Below, piece by piece: positions 10,078 to 36,199 of a stretch of 64,000 nt of DNA. The translations under genes and the position numbers were made by a program. Position 1 is the stretch's first letter. The number at the start of each line of letters is the position of its first letter. Origin of the DNA: Escherichia coli (GTDB taxonomy: Bacteria; Pseudomonadota; Gammaproteobacteria; Enterobacterales; Enterobacteriaceae); assembly GCF_036507355.1 (NCBI RefSeq), contig NZ_AP027877.1. One strand, 5' to 3'. Under the pieces are notes generated by a model that was given only the letters and a program-made list of their open reading frames with translations, made no database searches and had not been told where the DNA came from.

Positions 10078-11499
10078 ATGATGAGCAAAATAAACCAAAC
10101 GGATATCGATCGGTTGATTGAACTGGTCGGCGGGCGCGGCAATATTGCGACGGTGAGCCACTGTATTACTCGCCTGCGCTTTGTCCTCAACCAACCGGCC
10201 AATGCCAGACCGAAAGAAATTGAGCAACTCCCCATGGTGAAAGGCTGTTTCACCAATGCCGGGCAATTTCAGGTGGTGATTGGCACCAATGTGGGTGATT
10301 ACTATCAAGCACTGATTGCGTCAACCGGACAGGCGCAGGTTGATAAAGAGCAGGTAAAAAAAGCCGCCCGGCAGAATATGAAATGGCATGAGCAGTTGAT
10401 CTCTCATTTCGCGGAGATCTTCTTCCCGCTGCTGCCCGCGTTGATTAGCGGCGGTTTGATCCTCGGTTTTCGCAATGTGATCGGCGATTTGCCCATGAGC
10501 AACGGTCAGACGCTGGCGCAAATGTACCCTTCCCTGCAAACGATCTACGATTTTCTATGGTTGATCGGTGAAGCGATCTTCTTCTACCTGCCGGTCGGGA
10601 TTTGCTGGTCAGCGGTGAAAAAAATGGGCGGCACGCCGATCCTTGGTATCGTGCTTGGCGTGACACTGGTTTCTCCACAGCTGATGAACGCTTATCTGCT
10701 CGGGCAGCAGCTGCCGGAAGTGTGGGACTTTGGCATGTTCAGCATCGCCAAAGTAGGCTATCAGGCGCAGGTGATCCCGGCACTGTTAGCCGGGCTGGCG
10801 CTGGGCGTTATTGAAACTCGCCTTAAACGCATCGTGCCGGATTACCTCTATCTGGTGGTGGTGCCCGTCTGTTCGCTGATCCTCGCGGTGTTCCTCGCCC
10901 ATGCGCTGATTGGTCCGTTTGGTCGCATGATTGGCGATGGCGTTGCCTTTGCGGTACGTCACCTGATGACCGGCAGCTTTGCTCCGATTGGCGCAGCATT
11001 GTTTGGCTTCCTGTACGCCCCGCTGGTGATCACCGGGGTACACCAGACCACGCTTGCTATTGATTTGCAGATGATTCAAAGCATGGGTGGTACGCCAGTG
11101 TGGCCGCTGATTGCGCTGTCGAATATCGCTCAGGGCTCCGCCGTGATAGGCATTATCATTTCCAGCCGCAAGCACAATGAACGCGAGATCTCCGTGCCTG
11201 CCGCTATCTCCGCCTGGCTTGGGGTCACTGAGCCTGCAATGTACGGCATCAACCTGAAATATCGCTTCCCGATGCTGTGCGCGATGATTGGTTCTGGTCT
11301 GGCAGGATTGCTATGCGGCCTGAACGGCGTTATGGCGAATGGCATCGGCGTAGGCGGCCTGCCGGGAATTCTCTCGATTCAACCGAGCTACTGGCAGGTG
11401 TTTGCGCTGGCAATGGCTATCGCCATCATCATCCCGATTGTACTCACCTCGTTTATCTATCAGCGGAAATACCGCCTGGGCACGCTGGACATTGTTTAA
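10078..11499 (+). CDS. treB: PTS trehalose-specific EIIBC component
   Basis: 473-aa ORF; EIIB cysteine motif (HCITRLRF) then polytopic membrane domain. Confidence 0.95.
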   Translation: MMSKINQTDIDRLIELVGGRGNIATVSHCITRLRFVLNQPANARPKEIEQLPMVKGCFTNAGQFQVVIGTNVGDYYQALIASTGQAQVDKEQVKKAARQNMKWHEQLISHFAEIFFPLLPALISGGLILGFRNVIGDLPMSNGQTLAQMYPSLQTIYDFLWLIGEAIFFYLPVGICWSAVKKMGGTPILGIVLGVTLVSPQLMNAYLLGQQLPEVWDFGMFSIAKVGYQAQVIPALLAGLALGVIETRLKRIVPDYLYLVVVPVCSLILAVFLAHALIGPFGRMIGDGVAFAVRHLMTGSFAPIGAALFGFLYAPLVITGVHQTTLAIDLQMIQSMGGTPVWPLIALSNIAQGSAVIGIIISSRKHNEREISVPAAISAWLGVTEPAMYGINLKYRFPMLCAMIGSGLAGLLCGLNGVMANGIGVGGLPGILSIQPSYWQVFALAMAIAIIIPIVLTSFIYQRKYRLGTLDIV

Positions 11500-11548
11500 T
11501 TTTCTTCGGGGCGCAATTGCGCCCCCTCGCATTCGCAGGAATAACGTA

Positions 11549-13204
11549 ATGACTAATCTTCCCCACTGGTGGCAAAACGGCGTTATCTACCAGATTTATC
11601 CAAAGAGTTTTCAGGACACCACGGGTAGCGGCACCGGCGATTTACGTGGCGTTATCCAACGCCTGGACTATCTGCATAAACTGGGCGTTGATGCCATCTG
11701 GCTAACCCCCTTTTATGTCTCTCCCCAGGTCGATAACGGTTACGACGTAGCGAACTATACGGCGATTGATCCCACCTACGGCACGCTGGACGATTTTGAC
11801 GAACTGGTGACGCAGGCAAAATCGCGCGGGATTCGTATCATTCTCGATATGGTGTTTAACCATACCTCTACCCAACATGCCTGGTTTCGCGAGGCGCTGA
11901 ACAAAGAAAGCCCTTACCGCCAGTTTTATATCTGGCGCGATGGAGAACCAGAAACGCCACCGAACAACTGGCGTTCAAAATTTGGCGGTAGTGCGTGGCG
12001 CTGGCATGCGGAAAGCGAACAGTACTATTTGCATCTCTTTGCACCAGAACAGGCGGATCTCAACTGGGAGAATCCAGCGGTACGCGCAGAGCTGAAAAAA
12101 GTCTGTGAGTTCTGGGCCGATCGTGGGGTCGACGGGTTGCGCCTGGATGTGGTGAATCTGATCTCCAAAGACCCGCGTTTCCCTGAAGACCTGGACGGCG
12201 ACGGGCGTCGCTTCTACACCGACGGGCCACGAGCACACGAGTTTTTGCACGAGATGAACCGCGATGTGTTTACGCCACGCGGGTTAATGACCGTAGGTGA
12301 AATGTCCTCCACCAGCCTTGAGCATTGCCAGCGATACGCGGCTCTGACAGGCAGTGAATTGTCGATGACCTTTAATTTTCATCACCTGAAGGTCGATTAT
12401 CCCGGTGGTGAAAAATGGACGCTGGCTAAACCTGACTTTGTGGCGTTGAAAACATTGTTCCGCCACTGGCAACAAGGAATGCACAACGTAGCATGGAATG
12501 CCTTGTTCTGGTGTAACCACGATCAGCCGCGCATTGTTTCTCGCTTTGGTGATGAAGGTGAATACCGCGTGCCTGCGGCAAAAATGCTGGCGATGGTGCT
12601 GCATGGCATGCAGGGAACGCCGTATATCTACCAGGGCGAAGAGATTGGCATGACCAACCCGCATTTCACGCGCATTACTGACTATCGCGACGTAGAGAGC
12701 CTCAATATGTTTGCCGAGCTGCGCAACGATGGTCGTGATGCCGACGAATTATTGGCAATCCTCGCCAGTAAATCCCGTGACAACAGTCGCACGCCCATGC
12801 AATGGAGCAACGGCGATAATGCCGGGTTTACGGCTGGCGAACCGTGGATTAGCCTGGGCGATAACTATCAACAAATCAACGTAGAAGCCGCGCTGGCCGA
12901 TGAGTCCTCGGTGTTTTACACCTACCAAAAGTTAATCGCACTACGTAAGCAAGAAGCCGTTCTGACATGGGGCAATTACCAGGATCTGCTGCCAAACAGC
13001 CCTGTATTGTGGTGCTATCGCCGTGAATGGAAGGGGCAAACCTTGCTGGTCATTGCCAACCTTAGCCGTGAGATCCAACCCTGGCAGCCAGAGCAAATGC
13101 GCGGCAACTGGCAGCTTGTGATGCATAACTACGAAGAAGCCTCACCACAACCCTGTGCCATGACTTTACGGCCTTTTGAGGCTGTCTGGTGGTTACAGAA
13201 GTAA
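11549..13204 (+). CDS. treC: Trehalose-6-phosphate hydrolase (GH13)
   Basis: 551 aa from ATG at 11549 (MTNLPHWWQNGVIYQIYP) after AGGAA SD; GH13 motif GVDGLRLDVVN. Confidence 0.95.
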   Translation: MTNLPHWWQNGVIYQIYPKSFQDTTGSGTGDLRGVIQRLDYLHKLGVDAIWLTPFYVSPQVDNGYDVANYTAIDPTYGTLDDFDELVTQAKSRGIRIILDMVFNHTSTQHAWFREALNKESPYRQFYIWRDGEPETPPNNWRSKFGGSAWRWHAESEQYYLHLFAPEQADLNWENPAVRAELKKVCEFWADRGVDGLRLDVVNLISKDPRFPEDLDGDGRRFYTDGPRAHEFLHEMNRDVFTPRGLMTVGEMSSTSLEHCQRYAALTGSELSMTFNFHHLKVDYPGGEKWTLAKPDFVALKTLFRHWQQGMHNVAWNALFWCNHDQPRIVSRFGDEGEYRVPAAKMLAMVLHGMQGTPYIYQGEEIGMTNPHFTRITDYRDVESLNMFAELRNDGRDADELLAILASKSRDNSRTPMQWSNGDNAGFTAGEPWISLGDNYQQINVEAALADESSVFYTYQKLIALRKQEAVLTWGNYQDLLPNSPVLWCYRREWKGQTLLVIANLSREIQPWQPEQMRGNWQLVMHNYEEASPQPCAMTLRPFEAVWWLQK

Positions 13205-13216
13205 ATCTTCGCTAAG

Positions 13217-13249
13217 CCCCGGTAATGCCTGTCATTCCGGGGTTTTGTC
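13217..13249 (+). terminator. Rho-independent terminator after treC
   Basis: CCCCGG...CCGGGG stem followed by TTTTGTCT. Confidence 0.7.
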
Positions 13250-13347
13250 TGTCAGCATGTTGTTTTTGTTGATTTTTCAACCAGAAAATTCATTAAAAAA
13301 TTTACATAACGCTGTAGCGCCCGTCATCCGTACGCTCTGCTTTTTAC

Positions 13348-13437
13348 TTTGAGCTACATCAAAAAAAGTTCAAACATCCTTGATGCAAAGCACTATATAT
13401 AGACTTTAAAATGCGTCCCAACCCAATATGTTGTATT
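13348..13437 (+). promoter_or_regulatory. nrdDG promoter region: FNR-like site and two NrdR-box-like palindromes
   Basis: TTGAGctacATCAA at 13348-13362 (9/10 to FNR consensus TTGAT-N4-ATCAA); GCACTATATATAGACT (~13390-13405) and CCCAATATGTTGTATT (~13422-13437) resemble NrdR boxes; about 160-250 bp upstream of nrdD. Confidence 0.55.
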
Positions 13438-13597
13438 AATCGACTATAATTGCTACTACAGCTCCCCACGAAAAAGGTGCGGCGTTGTGGATAAGCGGAT
13501 GGCGATTGCGGAAAGCACCGGAAAACGAAACGAAAAAACCGGAAAACGCCTTTCCCAATTTCTGTGGATAACCTGTTCTTAAAAATATGGAGCGATC

Positions 13598-15736
13598 ATG
13601 ACACCGCATGTGATGAAACGAGACGGCTGCAAAGTGCCGTTTAAATCAGAGCGCATCAAAGAAGCGATTCTGCGTGCAGCTAAAGCAGCGGAAGTCGATG
13701 ATGCAGATTATTGCGCCACTGTTGCTGCGGTTGTCAGCGAGCAGATGCAAGGCCGTAACCAGGTGGATATCAACGAGATCCAGACCGCAGTTGAAAACCA
13801 GCTGATGTCAGGTCCATACAAACAACTGGCTCGTGCTTACATCGAGTACCGTCACGATCGCGACATTGAACGTGAAAAACGCGGTCGCCTGAACCAGGAG
13901 ATCCGTGGTCTGGTCGAGCAGACCAACGCCTCGTTACTCAACGAAAACGCCAACAAAGACAGCAAGGTGATTCCAACCCAGCGCGACCTGCTGGCCGGGA
14001 TCGTGGCTAAACACTATGCACGCCAGCACCTGCTGCCGCGTGACGTGGTGCAGGCACATGAGCGTGGCGATATTCACTATCACGATCTCGATTACTCGCC
14101 GTTCTTCCCGATGTTCAACTGCATGTTGATCGACCTGAAAGGCATGCTGACCCAGGGCTTTAAAATGGGGAACGCCGAGATTGAACCGCCGAAGTCGATC
14201 TCTACGGCAACCGCGGTAACTGCGCAGATTATTGCTCAGGTCGCCAGCCATATTTATGGCGGCACCACCATTAACCGTATCGATGAAGTGCTGGCGCCGT
14301 TTGTTACCGCCAGCTACAACAAACATCGCAAGACCGCAGAAGAGTGGAACATCCCGGACGCCGAAGGCTACGCTAACTCTCGTACCATCAAAGAGTGCTA
14401 CGATGCCTTCCAGTCGCTGGAGTACGAAGTAAACACCCTGCACACCGCCAACGGTCAGACGCCGTTTGTAACCTTTGGTTTTGGTCTGGGCACCAGCTGG
14501 GAATCGCGCCTGATTCAGGAATCGATCCTGCGTAACCGTATCGCAGGCCTCGGTAAAAACCGTAAAACTGCGGTGTTCCCGAAACTGGTGTTTGCGATTC
14601 GCGATGGCCTGAACCATAAAAAAGGCGATCCGAACTACGACATCAAACAGCTGGCGCTGGAGTGCGCAAGCAAGCGCATGTATCCGGATATCCTGAACTA
14701 CGATCAGGTAGTGAAAGTCACCGGTTCGTTTAAAACCCCGATGGGCTGCCGCAGCTTCCTCGGCGTGTGGGAAAATGAAAACGGCGAGCAGATCCACGAT
14801 GGTCGTAACAACCTCGGCGTGATCAGCCTGAACCTGCCGCGTATTGCTCTGGAAGCAAAAGGCGATGAAGCCACCTTCTGGAAGCTGCTGGATGAACGTC
14901 TGGTGCTGGCACGTAAGGCACTGATGACCCGTATCGCTCGTCTCGAAGGCGTGAAAGCGCGCGTCGCCCCGATCCTCTATATGGAAGGTGCTTGTGGCGT
15001 ACGTCTGAATGCTGACGATGATGTTTCTGAAATCTTCAAAAACGGTCGTGCGTCTATTTCGCTGGGTTACATCGGCATCCACGAAACCATTAACGCGCTG
15101 TTCGGCGGCGAGCATGTTTACGACAACGAGCAGCTTCGCGCGAAAGGTATCGCCATTGTTGAACGTCTGCGTCAGGCAGTGGATCAGTGGAAAGAAGAAA
15201 CGGGTTATGGTTTCAGTCTCTACAGCACGCCGAGTGAAAACCTGTGCGACCGCTTCTGCCGTCTCGATACTGCTGAGTTTGGCGTGGTGCCGGGCGTGAC
15301 CGATAAAGGTTACTACACCAACAGTTTCCACCTTGATGTGGAGAAGAAGGTGAACCCGTACGACAAGATCGACTTTGAAGCGCCTTACCCGCCGCTGGCG
15401 AACGGTGGTTTCATTTGCTACGGCGAGTATCCAAACATTCAGCACAACCTGAAAGCGCTGGAAGATGTCTGGGATTACAGCTATCAGCATGTACCGTATT
15501 ACGGCACCAATACACCGATTGATGAGTGCTACGAGTGTGGCTTTACCGGTGAGTTCGAGTGCACCAGCAAAGGCTTCACTTGCCCGAAATGTGGTAACCA
15601 TGACGCCTCCCGTGTGTCGGTAACTCGCCGCGTGTGCGGATATTTAGGTAGCCCGGATGCACGTCCATTTAACGCCGGTAAGCAGGAAGAAGTTAAGCGC
15701 CGCGTTAAACATTTGGGAAATGGGCAAATAGGTTAA
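13598..15736 (+). CDS. nrdD: Anaerobic ribonucleoside-triphosphate reductase (class III)
   Basis: 712-aa ORF; C-terminal glycyl-radical region (RRVCGYLG) and Cys cluster. Confidence 0.97.
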   Translation: MTPHVMKRDGCKVPFKSERIKEAILRAAKAAEVDDADYCATVAAVVSEQMQGRNQVDINEIQTAVENQLMSGPYKQLARAYIEYRHDRDIEREKRGRLNQEIRGLVEQTNASLLNENANKDSKVIPTQRDLLAGIVAKHYARQHLLPRDVVQAHERGDIHYHDLDYSPFFPMFNCMLIDLKGMLTQGFKMGNAEIEPPKSISTATAVTAQIIAQVASHIYGGTTINRIDEVLAPFVTASYNKHRKTAEEWNIPDAEGYANSRTIKECYDAFQSLEYEVNTLHTANGQTPFVTFGFGLGTSWESRLIQESILRNRIAGLGKNRKTAVFPKLVFAIRDGLNHKKGDPNYDIKQLALECASKRMYPDILNYDQVVKVTGSFKTPMGCRSFLGVWENENGEQIHDGRNNLGVISLNLPRIALEAKGDEATFWKLLDERLVLARKALMTRIARLEGVKARVAPILYMEGACGVRLNADDDVSEIFKNGRASISLGYIGIHETINALFGGEHVYDNEQLRAKGIAIVERLRQAVDQWKEETGYGFSLYSTPSENLCDRFCRLDTAEFGVVPGVTDKGYYTNSFHLDVEKKVNPYDKIDFEAPYPPLANGGFICYGEYPNIQHNLKALEDVWDYSYQHVPYYGTNTPIDECYECGFTGEFECTSKGFTCPKCGNHDASRVSVTRRVCGYLGSPDARPFNAGKQEEVKRRVKHLGNGQIG

Positions 15737-23722: not shown

Positions 23723-25235
23723 TTACGCCGCAATGGCGTTCATGATCGCCGGAACGGAAAGCTGTGCCAGCGGGATCTCCGCCACCTGTTTGCGATCGCG
23801 CATGATGATCACCCGGTCGGCATAGCCCACCAGCTCTTCCAGTTCGGAGGAGATCACCAGCAGCGCCAGACCGTCAGCACACAGCGTTTCAATCAGGCGG
23901 ATGATCTCGGCGTGGGCACCAACATCAATGCCACGGGTTGGCTCATCAAGGATCAGAAATTGCGGTCGGGTTAGTAGCCAACGTGAAAGCAGCACTTTTT
24001 GCTGATTGCCACCGGAGAGAAATTCAATCGGTTGTTCAGTTGAAGGTGTGCGAATGCCAAGCTGGCGGATAAAGCGTTCGGCAATCTCTTGCTGCTCTTT
24101 GCGGGAAATGGGTCGTAGCCAGCCGCGCTGGGCCTGGAGAGCGAGGATGATATTTTCCCGCACCGAGGCGGCGGCGATGATGCCATCGGTTTTCCTGTCT
24201 TCCGGGCAGAATCCGATGCCCAGTACTGAAGCCTGATGTGGCGATCGCAGGGTTTGCGGTTTGCCTTTGATCAACGCCGTGCCGCTGTCAGCAGGTTTGA
24301 TACCGAAGATCACTTCGGCGGTTTCGGTACGTCCGGATCCCAGCAAGCCAGCCAGACCGACGATCTCGCCGGGGTGCACTTCGAGATCAAACGGTGCTAT
24401 CGTTCCTTTTTTGCCGTAATTTTTGAACGCGGCAACGGGTTTGTCGCTCAACAATGTTCGCCCGGCACGCTGTAGCGCGTGGGTATCCAGCTCGCGCCCC
24501 AGCATCATTTTTACCAGTTCGATCTGCGGTAGCTCGCGCGTTTCCCGACAGCCTACGAAACTGCCGTTGCGTAAGACGGTGATCCGATCGCTGACCTGAT
24601 AGACCTGATCGAGAAAGTGAGTGACAAAGATCAGGCTGACGCCGCGATCGCGCAACTGACGCATCAGGCCAAATAATAGCTCCACTTCCTGGGTGTCGAG
24701 GCTGGCGGTGGGTTCATCGAGGATCAGCACTTTGGCGGAGAGATCGATAGCCCGGCAAATGGCGACGATTTGCTGCATCGCCACCGAAAAACGGTTAAGC
24801 GGTTCGCGCACGTCGAGGGAGAAACCGTAAGATGCCATCAGTTCGGTGGCGCGCTTTTCCATCTCTTTACGGCGTAGAAGGCCGAAACGTTTGGGTTCGC
24901 GACCTATGAATAGATTATCAGCAACCGACATATTGGGTAGCAGGTTGACTTCCTGATAGACGGTGCCGATACCGAGTTGTTGTGCATGGGCGGTATTTTT
25001 CGGTGAGATAGCCTGGCCTTCCAGCCAGATGGTGCCGCGATCGGCGTGGTATACACCAGTTAATGCTTTGATTAGCTTTGATTAGCGTTGATTTTCCCGC
25101 CCCGTTTTCACCAAGCAGCGCCATGATTTCGCCACGGCGCAGGCTGAAATCAACGTTGTCTAACGCTTTGACGCCGGGGAAAAATTTACTTAATCCTTCG
25201 GTGCGGAGGATCTCCTGGTGTTGGTCGGTCGTCAT
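23723..25235 (-). pseudogene. ytfR: ytfR (galactofuranose ABC transporter ATPase, two NBDs) inactivated by a +10-bp frameshift
   Basis: ORF track splits it into 24918..25235 (first 54 residues through Walker [14 protein letters not shown], then out-of-frame tail) and 23723..24931 (remainder, [16 protein letters not shown]...). Span is 1513 bp versus 1503 bp expected for the 500-aa K-12 protein (from memory). Confidence 0.85.
25066..25085. repeat. Perfect 10-bp tandem duplication (CTTTGATTAG x2) causing the ytfR frameshift
   Basis: Plus strand reads taatg-CTTTGATTAG-CTTTGATTAG-cgttgatttt; a degenerate third copy follows. Confidence 0.9.
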
Positions 25236-34570: not shown

Positions 34571-35914
34571 ATGTTAAACAGTATTTTAGTCATACTCTGC
34601 TTGATCGCTGTAAGTGCGTTCTTCTCGATGTCCGAGATCTCGCTTGCCGCCTCACGCAAAATCAAACTTAAACTGCTGGCTGATGAAGGCAATATAAATG
34701 CCCAACGCGTTCTGAATATGCAGGAAAATCCCGGCATGTTCTTTACCGTGGTCCAAATCGGTCTGAACGCAGTGGCGATTCTCGGCGGTATCGTCGGTGA
34801 TGCGGCATTTTCTCCAGCTTTTCACAGCCTGTTCTCCCGCTATATGTCGGCAGAGCTCTCTGAGCAACTGAGCTTTATTCTCTCTTTCTCGTTAGTGACT
34901 GGCATGTTTATCCTGTTTGCGGATTTAACCCCGAAACGCATCGGTATGATTGCGCCAGAAGCTGTGGCTTTGCGTATCATCAACCCGATGCGCTTCTGCC
35001 TGTACGTTTGCACCCCGCTGGTGTGGTTCTTCAACGGCCTGGCGAACATAATCTTCCGTATTTTCAAACTGCCAATGGTACGTAAAGATGACATCACTTC
35101 TGATGACATCTACGCGGTAGTGGAAGCCGGTGCGCTGGCGGGCGTGTTACGTAAACAGGAACACGAGCTGATTGAAAACGTCTTTGAGCTGGAATCCCGT
35201 ACCGTTCCGTCTTCAATGACACCGCGTGAAAACGTGATTTGGTTTGATCTCCACGAAGATGAGCAAAGCCTGAAGAATAAGGTGGCGGAACATCCGCACT
35301 CTAAGTTCCTCGTCTGTAATGAAGATATTGACCACATCATCGGTTATGTCGATTCTAAAGACCTGCTGAACCGCGTGCTGGCTAACCAAAGCTTGGCACT
35401 GAACAGCGGCGTACAAATTCGCAACACGCTGATTGTGCCGGATACGTTAACCCTTTCAGAGGCGTTGGAAAGTTTTAAAACCGCAGGTGAAGACTTCGCG
35501 GTGATCATGAACGAGTACGCGCTGGTGGTGGGGATCATCACCCTCAATGACGTGATGACCACGCTGATGGGCGATCTGGTCGGTCAGGGGCTGGAAGAGC
35601 AGATTGTCGCCCGTGATGAGAACTCATGGCTGATTGACGGCGGCACCCCAATTGACGACGTCATGCGCGTGCTGGATATTGACGAGTTCCCGCAGTCGGG
35701 CAACTACGAAACCATCGGCGGCTTTATGATGTTTATGCTGCGTAAGATCCCGAAACGCACCGATTCGGTGAAATTCGCCGGCTACAAATTTGAAGTGGTG
35801 GATATCGATAACTACCGCATCGACCAGCTGCTGGTGACCCGGATCGACAGCAAGGCCACCGCCCTTTCGCCAAAACTGCCTGACGCTAAAGATAAAGAAG
35901 AAAGCGTCGCGTAA
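34571..35914 (+). CDS. ytfL: CNNM/CorC-family inner membrane protein YtfL (DUF21 + CBS + CorC_HlyC)
   Basis: 447-aa ORF, domain architecture recalled for the family. Confidence 0.92.
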   Translation: MLNSILVILCLIAVSAFFSMSEISLAASRKIKLKLLADEGNINAQRVLNMQENPGMFFTVVQIGLNAVAILGGIVGDAAFSPAFHSLFSRYMSAELSEQLSFILSFSLVTGMFILFADLTPKRIGMIAPEAVALRIINPMRFCLYVCTPLVWFFNGLANIIFRIFKLPMVRKDDITSDDIYAVVEAGALAGVLRKQEHELIENVFELESRTVPSSMTPRENVIWFDLHEDEQSLKNKVAEHPHSKFLVCNEDIDHIIGYVDSKDLLNRVLANQSLALNSGVQIRNTLIVPDTLTLSEALESFKTAGEDFAVIMNEYALVVGIITLNDVMTTLMGDLVGQGLEEQIVARDENSWLIDGGTPIDDVMRVLDIDEFPQSGNYETIGGFMMFMLRKIPKRTDSVKFAGYKFEVVDIDNYRIDQLLVTRIDSKATALSPKLPDAKDKEESVA

Positions 35915-35930
35915 CCCCCAGAAACATCAA

Positions 35931-35956
35931 CGGCTCCTGAATCAGGAGCCGTCTTA
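35931..35956 (+). terminator. Rho-independent terminator after ytfL
   Basis: CGGCTCCTG-AAT-CAGGAGCCG stem followed by TCTTATT. Confidence 0.7.
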
Positions 35957-35990
35957 TTACTGCATAGCACTTTTTACTGCATAGCACTTT
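35957..35990. repeat. Perfect 17-bp tandem direct repeat (TTACTGCATAGCACTTT x2)
   Basis: Two identical 17-mers back to back, ending 2 bp before the ytfK stop codon. Confidence 0.9.
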
Positions 35991-35992
35991 GG

Positions 35993-36199
35993 TTAAGCCA
36001 TCTCTGTTTGCAGACGCATAACCTGACGGTTAACTTCGGACATCACTGACAAATGCAGCTTATCCTTCACTTTTGGGATAAGAATCTTACCCTTATCAAA
36101 TTCAAAAGCGCCAACGTCCTTGATGTATAACCGTCCACGGAACAGGATCTTTACGTACTTCGCCACCTGAAGTGGGTTGTACCGTTGGAAAATTTTCAT
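35993..36199 (-). CDS. ytfK: Small protein YtfK (DUF1107)
   Basis: 68 aa from internal ATG ([20 protein letters not shown]...). Confidence 0.88.

Follow-up and report, generated by a model that had tools for sequence, protein, structure and literature searches.

The spacer between the convergent genes paeA (ytfL) and ytfK raises a simple question: what is the perfectly duplicated 17-bp element that fills most of it, and why is it there twice? The locus was analysed in a 64,000-nt stretch of Escherichia coli DNA (hereafter the window; contig NZ_AP027877.1 of assembly GCF_036507355.1), in which the initial annotation had noticed the repeat and had suggested that it might be a strain-specific duplication or a conserved feature. 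The array proved to be a polymorphic tandem multiplication of a conserved element of the ytfK 3'UTR that is perfectly complementary to the small RNA (sRNA) FnrS. The features needed to follow the argument are as follows, in window coordinates.

34571..35914, plus strand: paeA (ytfL) coding sequence, 447 aa, convergent with ytfK, stop codon at 35912-35914 (open reading frame and annotation).
35917..35933, minus strand: conserved block adjoining the hairpin, forming the 3' tail of the ytfK transcript (plus strand AGAAACATCAACGG, ytfK strand CCGUUGAUGUUUCU).
35929..35953, both strands: bidirectional intrinsic-terminator hairpin common to paeA (ytfL) and ytfK, terminator-like on either strand.
35957..35973, minus strand: repeat unit 1, hairpin-proximal, read from the sequence (ytfK mRNA strand AAAGUGCUAUGCAGUAA).
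35974..35990, minus strand: repeat unit 2, stop-codon-proximal, extra relative to the ancestral single copy (sequence and strain alignment).
35993..35995, minus strand: ytfK stop codon (open reading frame).
35993..36199, minus strand: ytfK coding sequence, 68 aa, stringent response modulator YtfK (open reading frame and RefSeq annotation of orthologous loci).

In the window sequence, TTACTGCATAGCACTTT occurs twice head to tail (35957-35973 and 35974-35990) with zero mismatches, and Tandem Repeats Finder returned the same array as the top-scoring one of the 64-kb window (35953-35990, period 17, score 69), in agreement with the perfect 17-bp repeat originally described between the terminator hairpin and the ytfK stop codon. 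Perfect repetition extends over exactly 34 nt, since the flanking bases mismatch (A35956 against T35973, G35991 against T35974). By simple arithmetic, a tandem duplication of 17 nt without mismatch would turn up by chance in a 64-kb sequence with a probability of about 64000 x 4^-17, or about 4e-6, and the repeat goes beyond chance similarity because the array varies by whole units between genomes (see below). The convergent spacer that holds it is 78 nt long; the array begins 4 nt past the hairpin and stops 2 nt short of the ytfK stop codon, and makes up nearly all of the single-stranded part of the ytfK 3'UTR, so that its original placement in that 3'UTR, between stop codon and terminator, stands.

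The terminator hairpin (bounds 35929/35930 to 35952/35953) is G+C-rich, with stem ACGGCTCCTG / CAGGAGCCGT and loop AAT; across more than 50 Enterobacteriaceae loci its stem is kept and its loop is variable. The tail that follows the hairpin on the ytfK transcript is GUUGAUGUUUCU and has no U run. As a separate observation, GTTGATGTTT within the block at 35917-35933 is kept in most Enterobacteriaceae genera, far beyond the needs of an ordinary terminator tail. In two single-copy strains, 3347558 and CUVET19-1704, the hairpin reads GGCTCCCGAATCAGGAGCC in place of GGCTCCTGAATCAGGAGCC, a T-to-C change that breaks the T-A pair second from the loop and leaves the loop-closing G-C pair isolated. Scanning the locus against Rfam (E up to 1) returned no family. 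Readings of the motif as a promoter, as a LexA-like or other operator or as a palindrome were considered by inspection and set aside, as no convincing match was seen; by inspection also, the motif has no inverted repeat beyond TGC/GCA.

FnrS is an Hfq-dependent sRNA that is induced by FNR in the absence of oxygen and mostly represses functions that are dispensable anaerobically. Nucleotides 65-78 of fnrS (MG1655, NC_000913.3, 1409129-1409250) read TTACTGCATAGCAC (RNA UUACUGCAUAGCAC) and are identical to the first 14 nt of the unit on the plus strand of the window. Each unit of the ytfK mRNA is therefore a perfect FnrS antisense, containing GUGCUAUGCAGUAA, a perfect 14-15 nt complement of FnrS nt 64-78. 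The initial annotation's guess that the repeat might matter to the ytfK transcript pointed in the right direction and missed the antisense identity of the unit. Pairing was scored by longest-run statistics, local duplexes and multi-strand cofolding. Unit 1, together with the U from position 35956, gives a 15-nt Watson-Crick run with FnrS nt 64-78 (core duplex -25.3 kcal/mol), and unit 2 and every further unit give 14 bp with FnrS nt 65-78 (core duplex -24.0 kcal/mol). The longest complementary run observed, 15 nt, compares with a mean of 6.1 nt and a maximum of 12 nt in 5,000 shuffles of the UTR.

Multi-strand cofolding, in which the structures of both RNAs are included, accommodated a second FnrS molecule on unit 2, and the predicted cofolding gain was -16.9, -35.4 and -53.7 kcal/mol for one, two and three sites with one, two and three FnrS molecules, respectively. 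Within FnrS, the predicted fold places nt 62-67 and 69-71 in a weak, A/U-rich hairpin and leaves the rest of nt 64-78 unpaired. Neighbouring sites lie 3 nt apart, and two FnrS-Hfq complexes may clash sterically, which cofolding does not take into account. Each added junction creates, by inspection, an A-rich AGUAAAAAG of the ARN type; A-rich stretches of this type bind the distal face of Hfq. In the gap between the FnrS site and the hairpin, UAAGAC in E. coli (window 35951-35956) is complementary to FnrS nt 43-52 (UUGUCUUACU), as is the equivalent gap of Franconibacter pulveris, AGUAAGACAA; judged from the sequences, this may be a second short contact or chance.

The pairing site is conserved well beyond E. 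coli. Outgroup loci were collected from species-representative genomes with a degenerate pattern for the YtfK C-terminus, which yielded 55 orthologous loci. The 13-mer GTGCTATGCAGTA (ytfK strand; RNA GUGCUAUGCAGUA) is exact in 40 of 56 loci, with a surrounding spacer that varies in length and sequence; the genera with an exact match include Salmonella, Enterobacter, Lelliottia, Leclercia, Kosakonia, Yokenella and Trabulsiella. The motif lies 2-12 nt from the ytfK stop codon and 7-23 nt from the hairpin. A perfect FnrS run of at least 11 nt was found in 42 of 54 full-length Enterobacteriaceae ytfK 3'UTRs, in all cases inside FnrS nt 60-82, and control windows from the same loci and shuffled sequences gave runs of 8 nt at most. 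In UTRs of the Kosakonia and Salmonella types, the predicted pairing is longer, at some 23 bp when G-U pairs are counted (-32.8 and -32.6 kcal/mol). The site is lost or eroded in the Klebsiella/Raoultella group and in some Citrobacter (one C. freundii locus is eroded).

For the sRNA partner, fnrS was taken beside zntB in eight genera other than Escherichia. FnrS nt 1-93 are 100% identical in E. coli, Salmonella, Citrobacter, Phytobacter, Leclercia, Yokenella, Kosakonia, Franconibacter and Raoultella, and within E. coli the identity of FnrS reaches 99% or more in 5,389 of 5,392 genomes. The site therefore evolves opposite a partner that does not vary, which leaves no covariation between FnrS and its site to be scored. 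Across the nine genera the terminator loop of fnrS alone varies, an extreme conservation for an sRNA. A second GCAGUA hexamer, complementary to UACUGC of FnrS, lies 9-14 nt past the main site in seven loci outside Escherichia (the ytfK 3'UTRs of Lelliottia, Leclercia, Phytobacter and relatives), against a chance expectation, roughly estimated, of about 0.4 loci. In one further locus (L054) the first site is degenerate and the second GCAGUA hexamer is intact. At the level of sequence, these second hexamers suggest that other lineages have independently duplicated part of the FnrS-complementary core.

Published RIL-seq tables show that the ytfK 3'UTR and FnrS are very frequently ligated to each other on Hfq in vivo. 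The chimera ytfK.EST3UTR-fnrS ranks first in both wild-type Hfq-FLAG replicates, with 112,573 and 85,192 chimeras, and in replicate 1 it is about 2.4 times as frequent as the next pair, ChiX with chiP/ChiZ (PMC12262471 Table S4). Its count drops steeply when the rim or the distal face of Hfq is mutated: the chimera was seen 11 times or went undetected in R16A, a rim mutant, and numbered about 1,000-2,000 in Y25D and about 11,000-15,000 in K31A (PMC12262471). The chimera coordinates, 4439412-4439899, are coarser than the repeat and do not place the junction on it (PMC12262471). The strain from which these data came, K-12, carries the two-site allele. In Salmonella, the ytfK mRNA is 31.8-fold enriched in Hfq co-immunoprecipitation (PMC2515195).

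The copy-number survey covered 5,426 complete E. coli genomes, of which 5,420 were hit by a 351-nt query, with match lengths of 351, 334 or 368 nt (+0, -17 and +17), and alignment of the locus gave two perfect units in the window and in K-12 DH5alpha, one in ECOR29 and three in O157:H7 EDL933, the remainder being almost identical. With a 200-nt single-copy query, 1,031 genomes fell in the two-copy identity band; a three-unit probe found at least two units in 1,244 genomes and at least three in 218; and a flank-anchored five-unit probe found four units in three genomes and none above four. A second series of match lengths, 200, 217, 234 and 251 nt, likewise differs by whole units. The allele spectrum over the 5,426 genomes is accordingly one copy in about 4,170 (77%), two copies in about 1,026-1,031 (19%), three copies in 215 (4%) and four copies in three; these are database frequencies rather than population ones, as laboratory derivatives of K-12 (about one third of the sampled two-copy rows) and O157:H7 are over-represented. 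Thus neither of the two original suggestions, a strain-specific duplication or a conserved feature, fits a polymorphic allele of one to four copies, and the further possibility raised there, that all related genomes carry the same two copies, does not hold, with about 77% of these genomes being single-copy.

Two copies are present in MG1655 (NC_000913.3, 4439796-4439829), BW25113, DH5alpha, DH10B and MC4100. Among those listed, the three-copy genomes are all O157:H7 strains or strains of O157:H7 size, including EDL933 and Sakai, and the four-copy genomes are PA20, 20R2R and strain 472. The 20R2R entry, a 'culture mutant', was considered as a laboratory expansion from Sakai and rejected as such, since, like PA20, it originates from Pennsylvania and probably derives from that strain. 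Nearly all multi-copy genomes (roughly 1,244) have perfect units, only three falling below 95% identity. A link between multi-copy alleles and insertion of ytfI was also considered and proved partial only: a ytfI-like gene is present in about 1,605 of 5,426 genomes against 1,244 multi-copy genomes, and the PU-1 group has two copies without ytfI. The gene between ytfJ and cysQ is itself a presence/absence polymorphism. The window has a ytfI-like ORF there (37168-38079, minus strand), 98.5% identical to the copy in the K-12-derived XL10-Gold; in other genomes ytfJ adjoins cysQ directly, and GPEC464 has a different hypothetical gene at that place.

The direction of change follows from the outgroups. 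The array is single-copy in E. albertii, in five further divergent representative genomes of Escherichia and in every other genus, and one copy is therefore ancestral. For its tempo, 16 E. coli loci were compared over 1,200 nt of flank on either side. Four strains of the O157:H7 type with different copy numbers (NE122 and CEC96047, two; EDL933, three; PA20, four) show no differences over the 2,400 nt of flank, and the change by whole units must therefore be very recent. The array behaves as a slippage-prone variable-number tandem repeat (VNTR), with slippage ongoing in O157:H7: its units lie head to tail, its alleles differ by whole units, and its copy number shifts within a clone independently of flank mutations. 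Two-copy alleles occur on two well-differentiated proximal haplotypes, one of the window and K-12 type and one of the PU-1 and GPEC464 type, and each has single-copy counterparts only 0-2 substitutions per kilobase away from it. Repeated identical de novo duplications seem unlikely because the duplication junction is identical everywhere and has no microhomology. An old single duplication followed by recurrent two-to-one contraction, or short-tract recombination, fits better; contraction from two copies to one always restores the ancestral sequence. The two-copy allele of the window is inherited and is not a new event.

Taken together, the unit in the ytfK 3'UTR is probably a conserved FnrS pairing site that has been tandemly multiplied, with between one and four sites arising by gain and loss of whole units. 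In the scheme proposed here, the single ancestral site is retained throughout Enterobacteriaceae; certain E. coli lineages acquired a tandem duplication of the entire site together with a 3-nt AAA spacer; and slippage during replication, or unequal recombination, now lets the array grow or shrink by whole units. Anaerobically produced FnrS would pair with the ytfK 3'UTR site on Hfq. This may place the ytfK mRNA under FnrS-dependent control, or let abundant ytfK mRNA act as a sponge that titrates FnrS, or do both, in that pairing could destabilise the ytfK mRNA, the ytfK mRNA could titrate FnrS, or coupled degradation could do the two at once. With every extra unit a transcript would gain a further docking site for FnrS, and stoichiometry or avidity would be altered in this way. 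YtfK promotes SpoT-dependent (p)ppGpp accumulation and peroxide tolerance, and either outcome (control of ytfK or titration of FnrS) is biologically sensible. No mutation or compensatory-mutation evidence for the regulatory outcome was found in the accessible literature, to which the original FnrS papers do not belong. Extra copies are clearly not required, about 77% of E. coli genomes and all outgroups having one.

This last fact is also an argument for regarding the multiplication as a neutral minisatellite seated on a functional site, in which the single ancestral FnrS site does all the work and the extra copies, products of slippage with no measurable effect on regulation, drift or hitch-hike in the lineages that carry them (K-12-type, PU-1-type and O157:H7). 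Copy number varies in a clone with identical flanks, as it would at a mutational hotspot, and the close spacing of adjacent sites, 3 nt apart, agrees with this account as well. Set against it are the preservation of the complete 14-nt complement in every extra unit, with units near-universally perfect, the predicted additivity of binding energy, the origin of the top RIL-seq rank in a two-copy strain, and the independent appearance of a second GCAGUA element downstream in other genera; none of these points proves an effect of copy number. We regard neutrality of the extra copies as a serious possibility, at somewhat less than an even chance.

It is much harder to maintain that the motif serves another role, as part of the bidirectional terminator, as an AUG-CAG-stop mini-ORF translated by reinitiation after ytfK or as a protein or RNase site, and that the FnrS match is incidental. 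The motif does contain AUG CAG UAA, its in-frame stop being UAA, UAG or UGA by genus, with the variants AUG-CGG-UAG, AUG-CGA-UAG and AUG-CAA-UAG, and the post-hairpin tail is likewise conserved with no obvious connection to FnrS. However, the AUG has no preceding Shine-Dalgarno sequence, and the conserved 13 nt well exceed a 9-nt mini-ORF and coincide exactly with the FnrS complement; a part in termination sits poorly with a distance between motif and hairpin that ranges from 7 to 23 nt; and coincidental complementarity would have to account both for the pairing in Kosakonia- and Salmonella-type UTRs, which reaches some 23 bp with G-U pairs counted, and for FnrS-ytfK 3'UTR chimeras being the most abundant on Hfq. 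A role of this kind is accordingly considered very improbable.

Finally, a recent strain-specific slippage or an assembly artefact in the window, for which another private tandem duplication in its ytfR might have spoken, is refuted by the presence of the same two-copy allele and flanks in many independent genomes (MG1655, BW25113, DH5alpha and wild isolates) and on at least two well-differentiated flank haplotypes. The initial annotation had seen the ytfR duplication correctly (GCTTTGATTA occurs twice at 25065-25084), and had taken the two repeats together as a sign of recurrent slippage in this genome. The 10-bp duplication breaks ytfR (about 23723-25235 on the minus strand) into two ORFs, one of 402 and one of 105 aa. 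It was seen in none of the 5,421 E. coli genomes compared, which have the 231-nt form against 241 nt in the window; it is a private frameshifting lesion of the source of the window, or a sequence error. As the ytfR duplication is private and the 17-bp allele is old and widely shared, with repeat and flanks identical in unrelated strains, the two repeats are unrelated in age, and neither the recent event nor the common slippage that had been suggested is upheld.

Returning to the multiplied FnrS site, a stronger reading is that the array is a naturally tunable sRNA dosage element, in which the number of units sets how much FnrS is captured per ytfK transcript; we put this forward tentatively, and consider it rather doubtful at present. 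If it were true, unit number would tune the coupling of the anaerobic FNR/FnrS circuit to YtfK-dependent SpoT/(p)ppGpp signalling and peroxide tolerance, with three sites as the setting of O157:H7, two as that of K-12 and one as that of most strains, and the locus would be contingency-like at the level of RNA-RNA stoichiometry rather than of coding frame or promoter. If copy number were neutral, the array would still be a clean, previously unlisted VNTR that varies inside O157:H7.

A literature search with the unit sequence in either orientation, or for a tandem repeat or VNTR at ytfK/ytfL, found no relevant paper, nor any account of the pairing site, of how it is conserved or of how its copy number varies. 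What is new is an sRNA site whose dosage is a natural polymorphism; the ytfK-FnrS interaction itself is already in published RIL-seq tables. The site offers a sequence-level explanation for an uncharacterised top RIL-seq interaction, at a locus that links oxygen sensing (FNR/FnrS) to the stringent-response modulator YtfK. Target sites and sponges of sRNAs are normally seen as fixed, and here the most abundant Hfq pair of K-12 probably rests on a site present in one to four copies. K-12 is unrepresentative in this respect, carrying a non-ancestral two-site allele against the single site of about 77% of genomes and the three sites of O157:H7. The alleles together form a natural series for probing site multiplicity in bacterial sRNA titration and target control.

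Several known systems bear comparison, the nearest in function being mRNA-borne sponges and decoys of sRNAs and sRNA target sites located in 3'UTRs. Enterobacterial sponges and decoys include SroC (from gltIJKL) against GcvB, the chbBC intergenic decoy against ChiX, and 3'ETS-leuZ against RyhB and RybB. Sponging of GcvB by SroC has been described (10.1101/2024.02.12.579971). Like sponges of the SroC and chbBC type, the ytfK element is a non-coding part of an mRNA with extended complementarity to an Hfq-dependent sRNA, and its chimeras are very abundant; unlike them, it lies in an intact 3'UTR between stop codon and terminator, is a putative sponge, and is tandemly repeated with a copy number that varies between strains. 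Regulation through a 3'UTR is exemplified by Spot 42 acting on the hilD 3'UTR of Salmonella. In both cases the sRNA pairs past the stop codon and not at the ribosome-binding site, and Hfq is involved. The ytfK 3'UTR differs in being very short (about 60-80 nt) and in forming with FnrS a predicted duplex that is unusually long and perfect (14-15 bp, and about 23 bp in other genera).

As a repeat, the array resembles the bacterial VNTR loci used in multilocus typing (MLVA), which arise by slipped-strand mispairing and of which there are both generic E. coli and O157:H7 panels. It shares with them perfect head-to-tail units, whole-unit polymorphism and variation inside the O157:H7 clone, and differs from them in its narrow range (one to four copies) and in a unit that coincides with a conserved functional RNA site. 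A conceptual analogue is found in eukaryotic 3'UTRs with multiple microRNA sites and in engineered microRNA sponges, where, as here, a repeated small-RNA site in a 3'UTR raises the binding capacity per transcript; the machinery differs, being Hfq and RNase E rather than Argonaute, and the multiplicity at ytfK is a natural polymorphism within a species.
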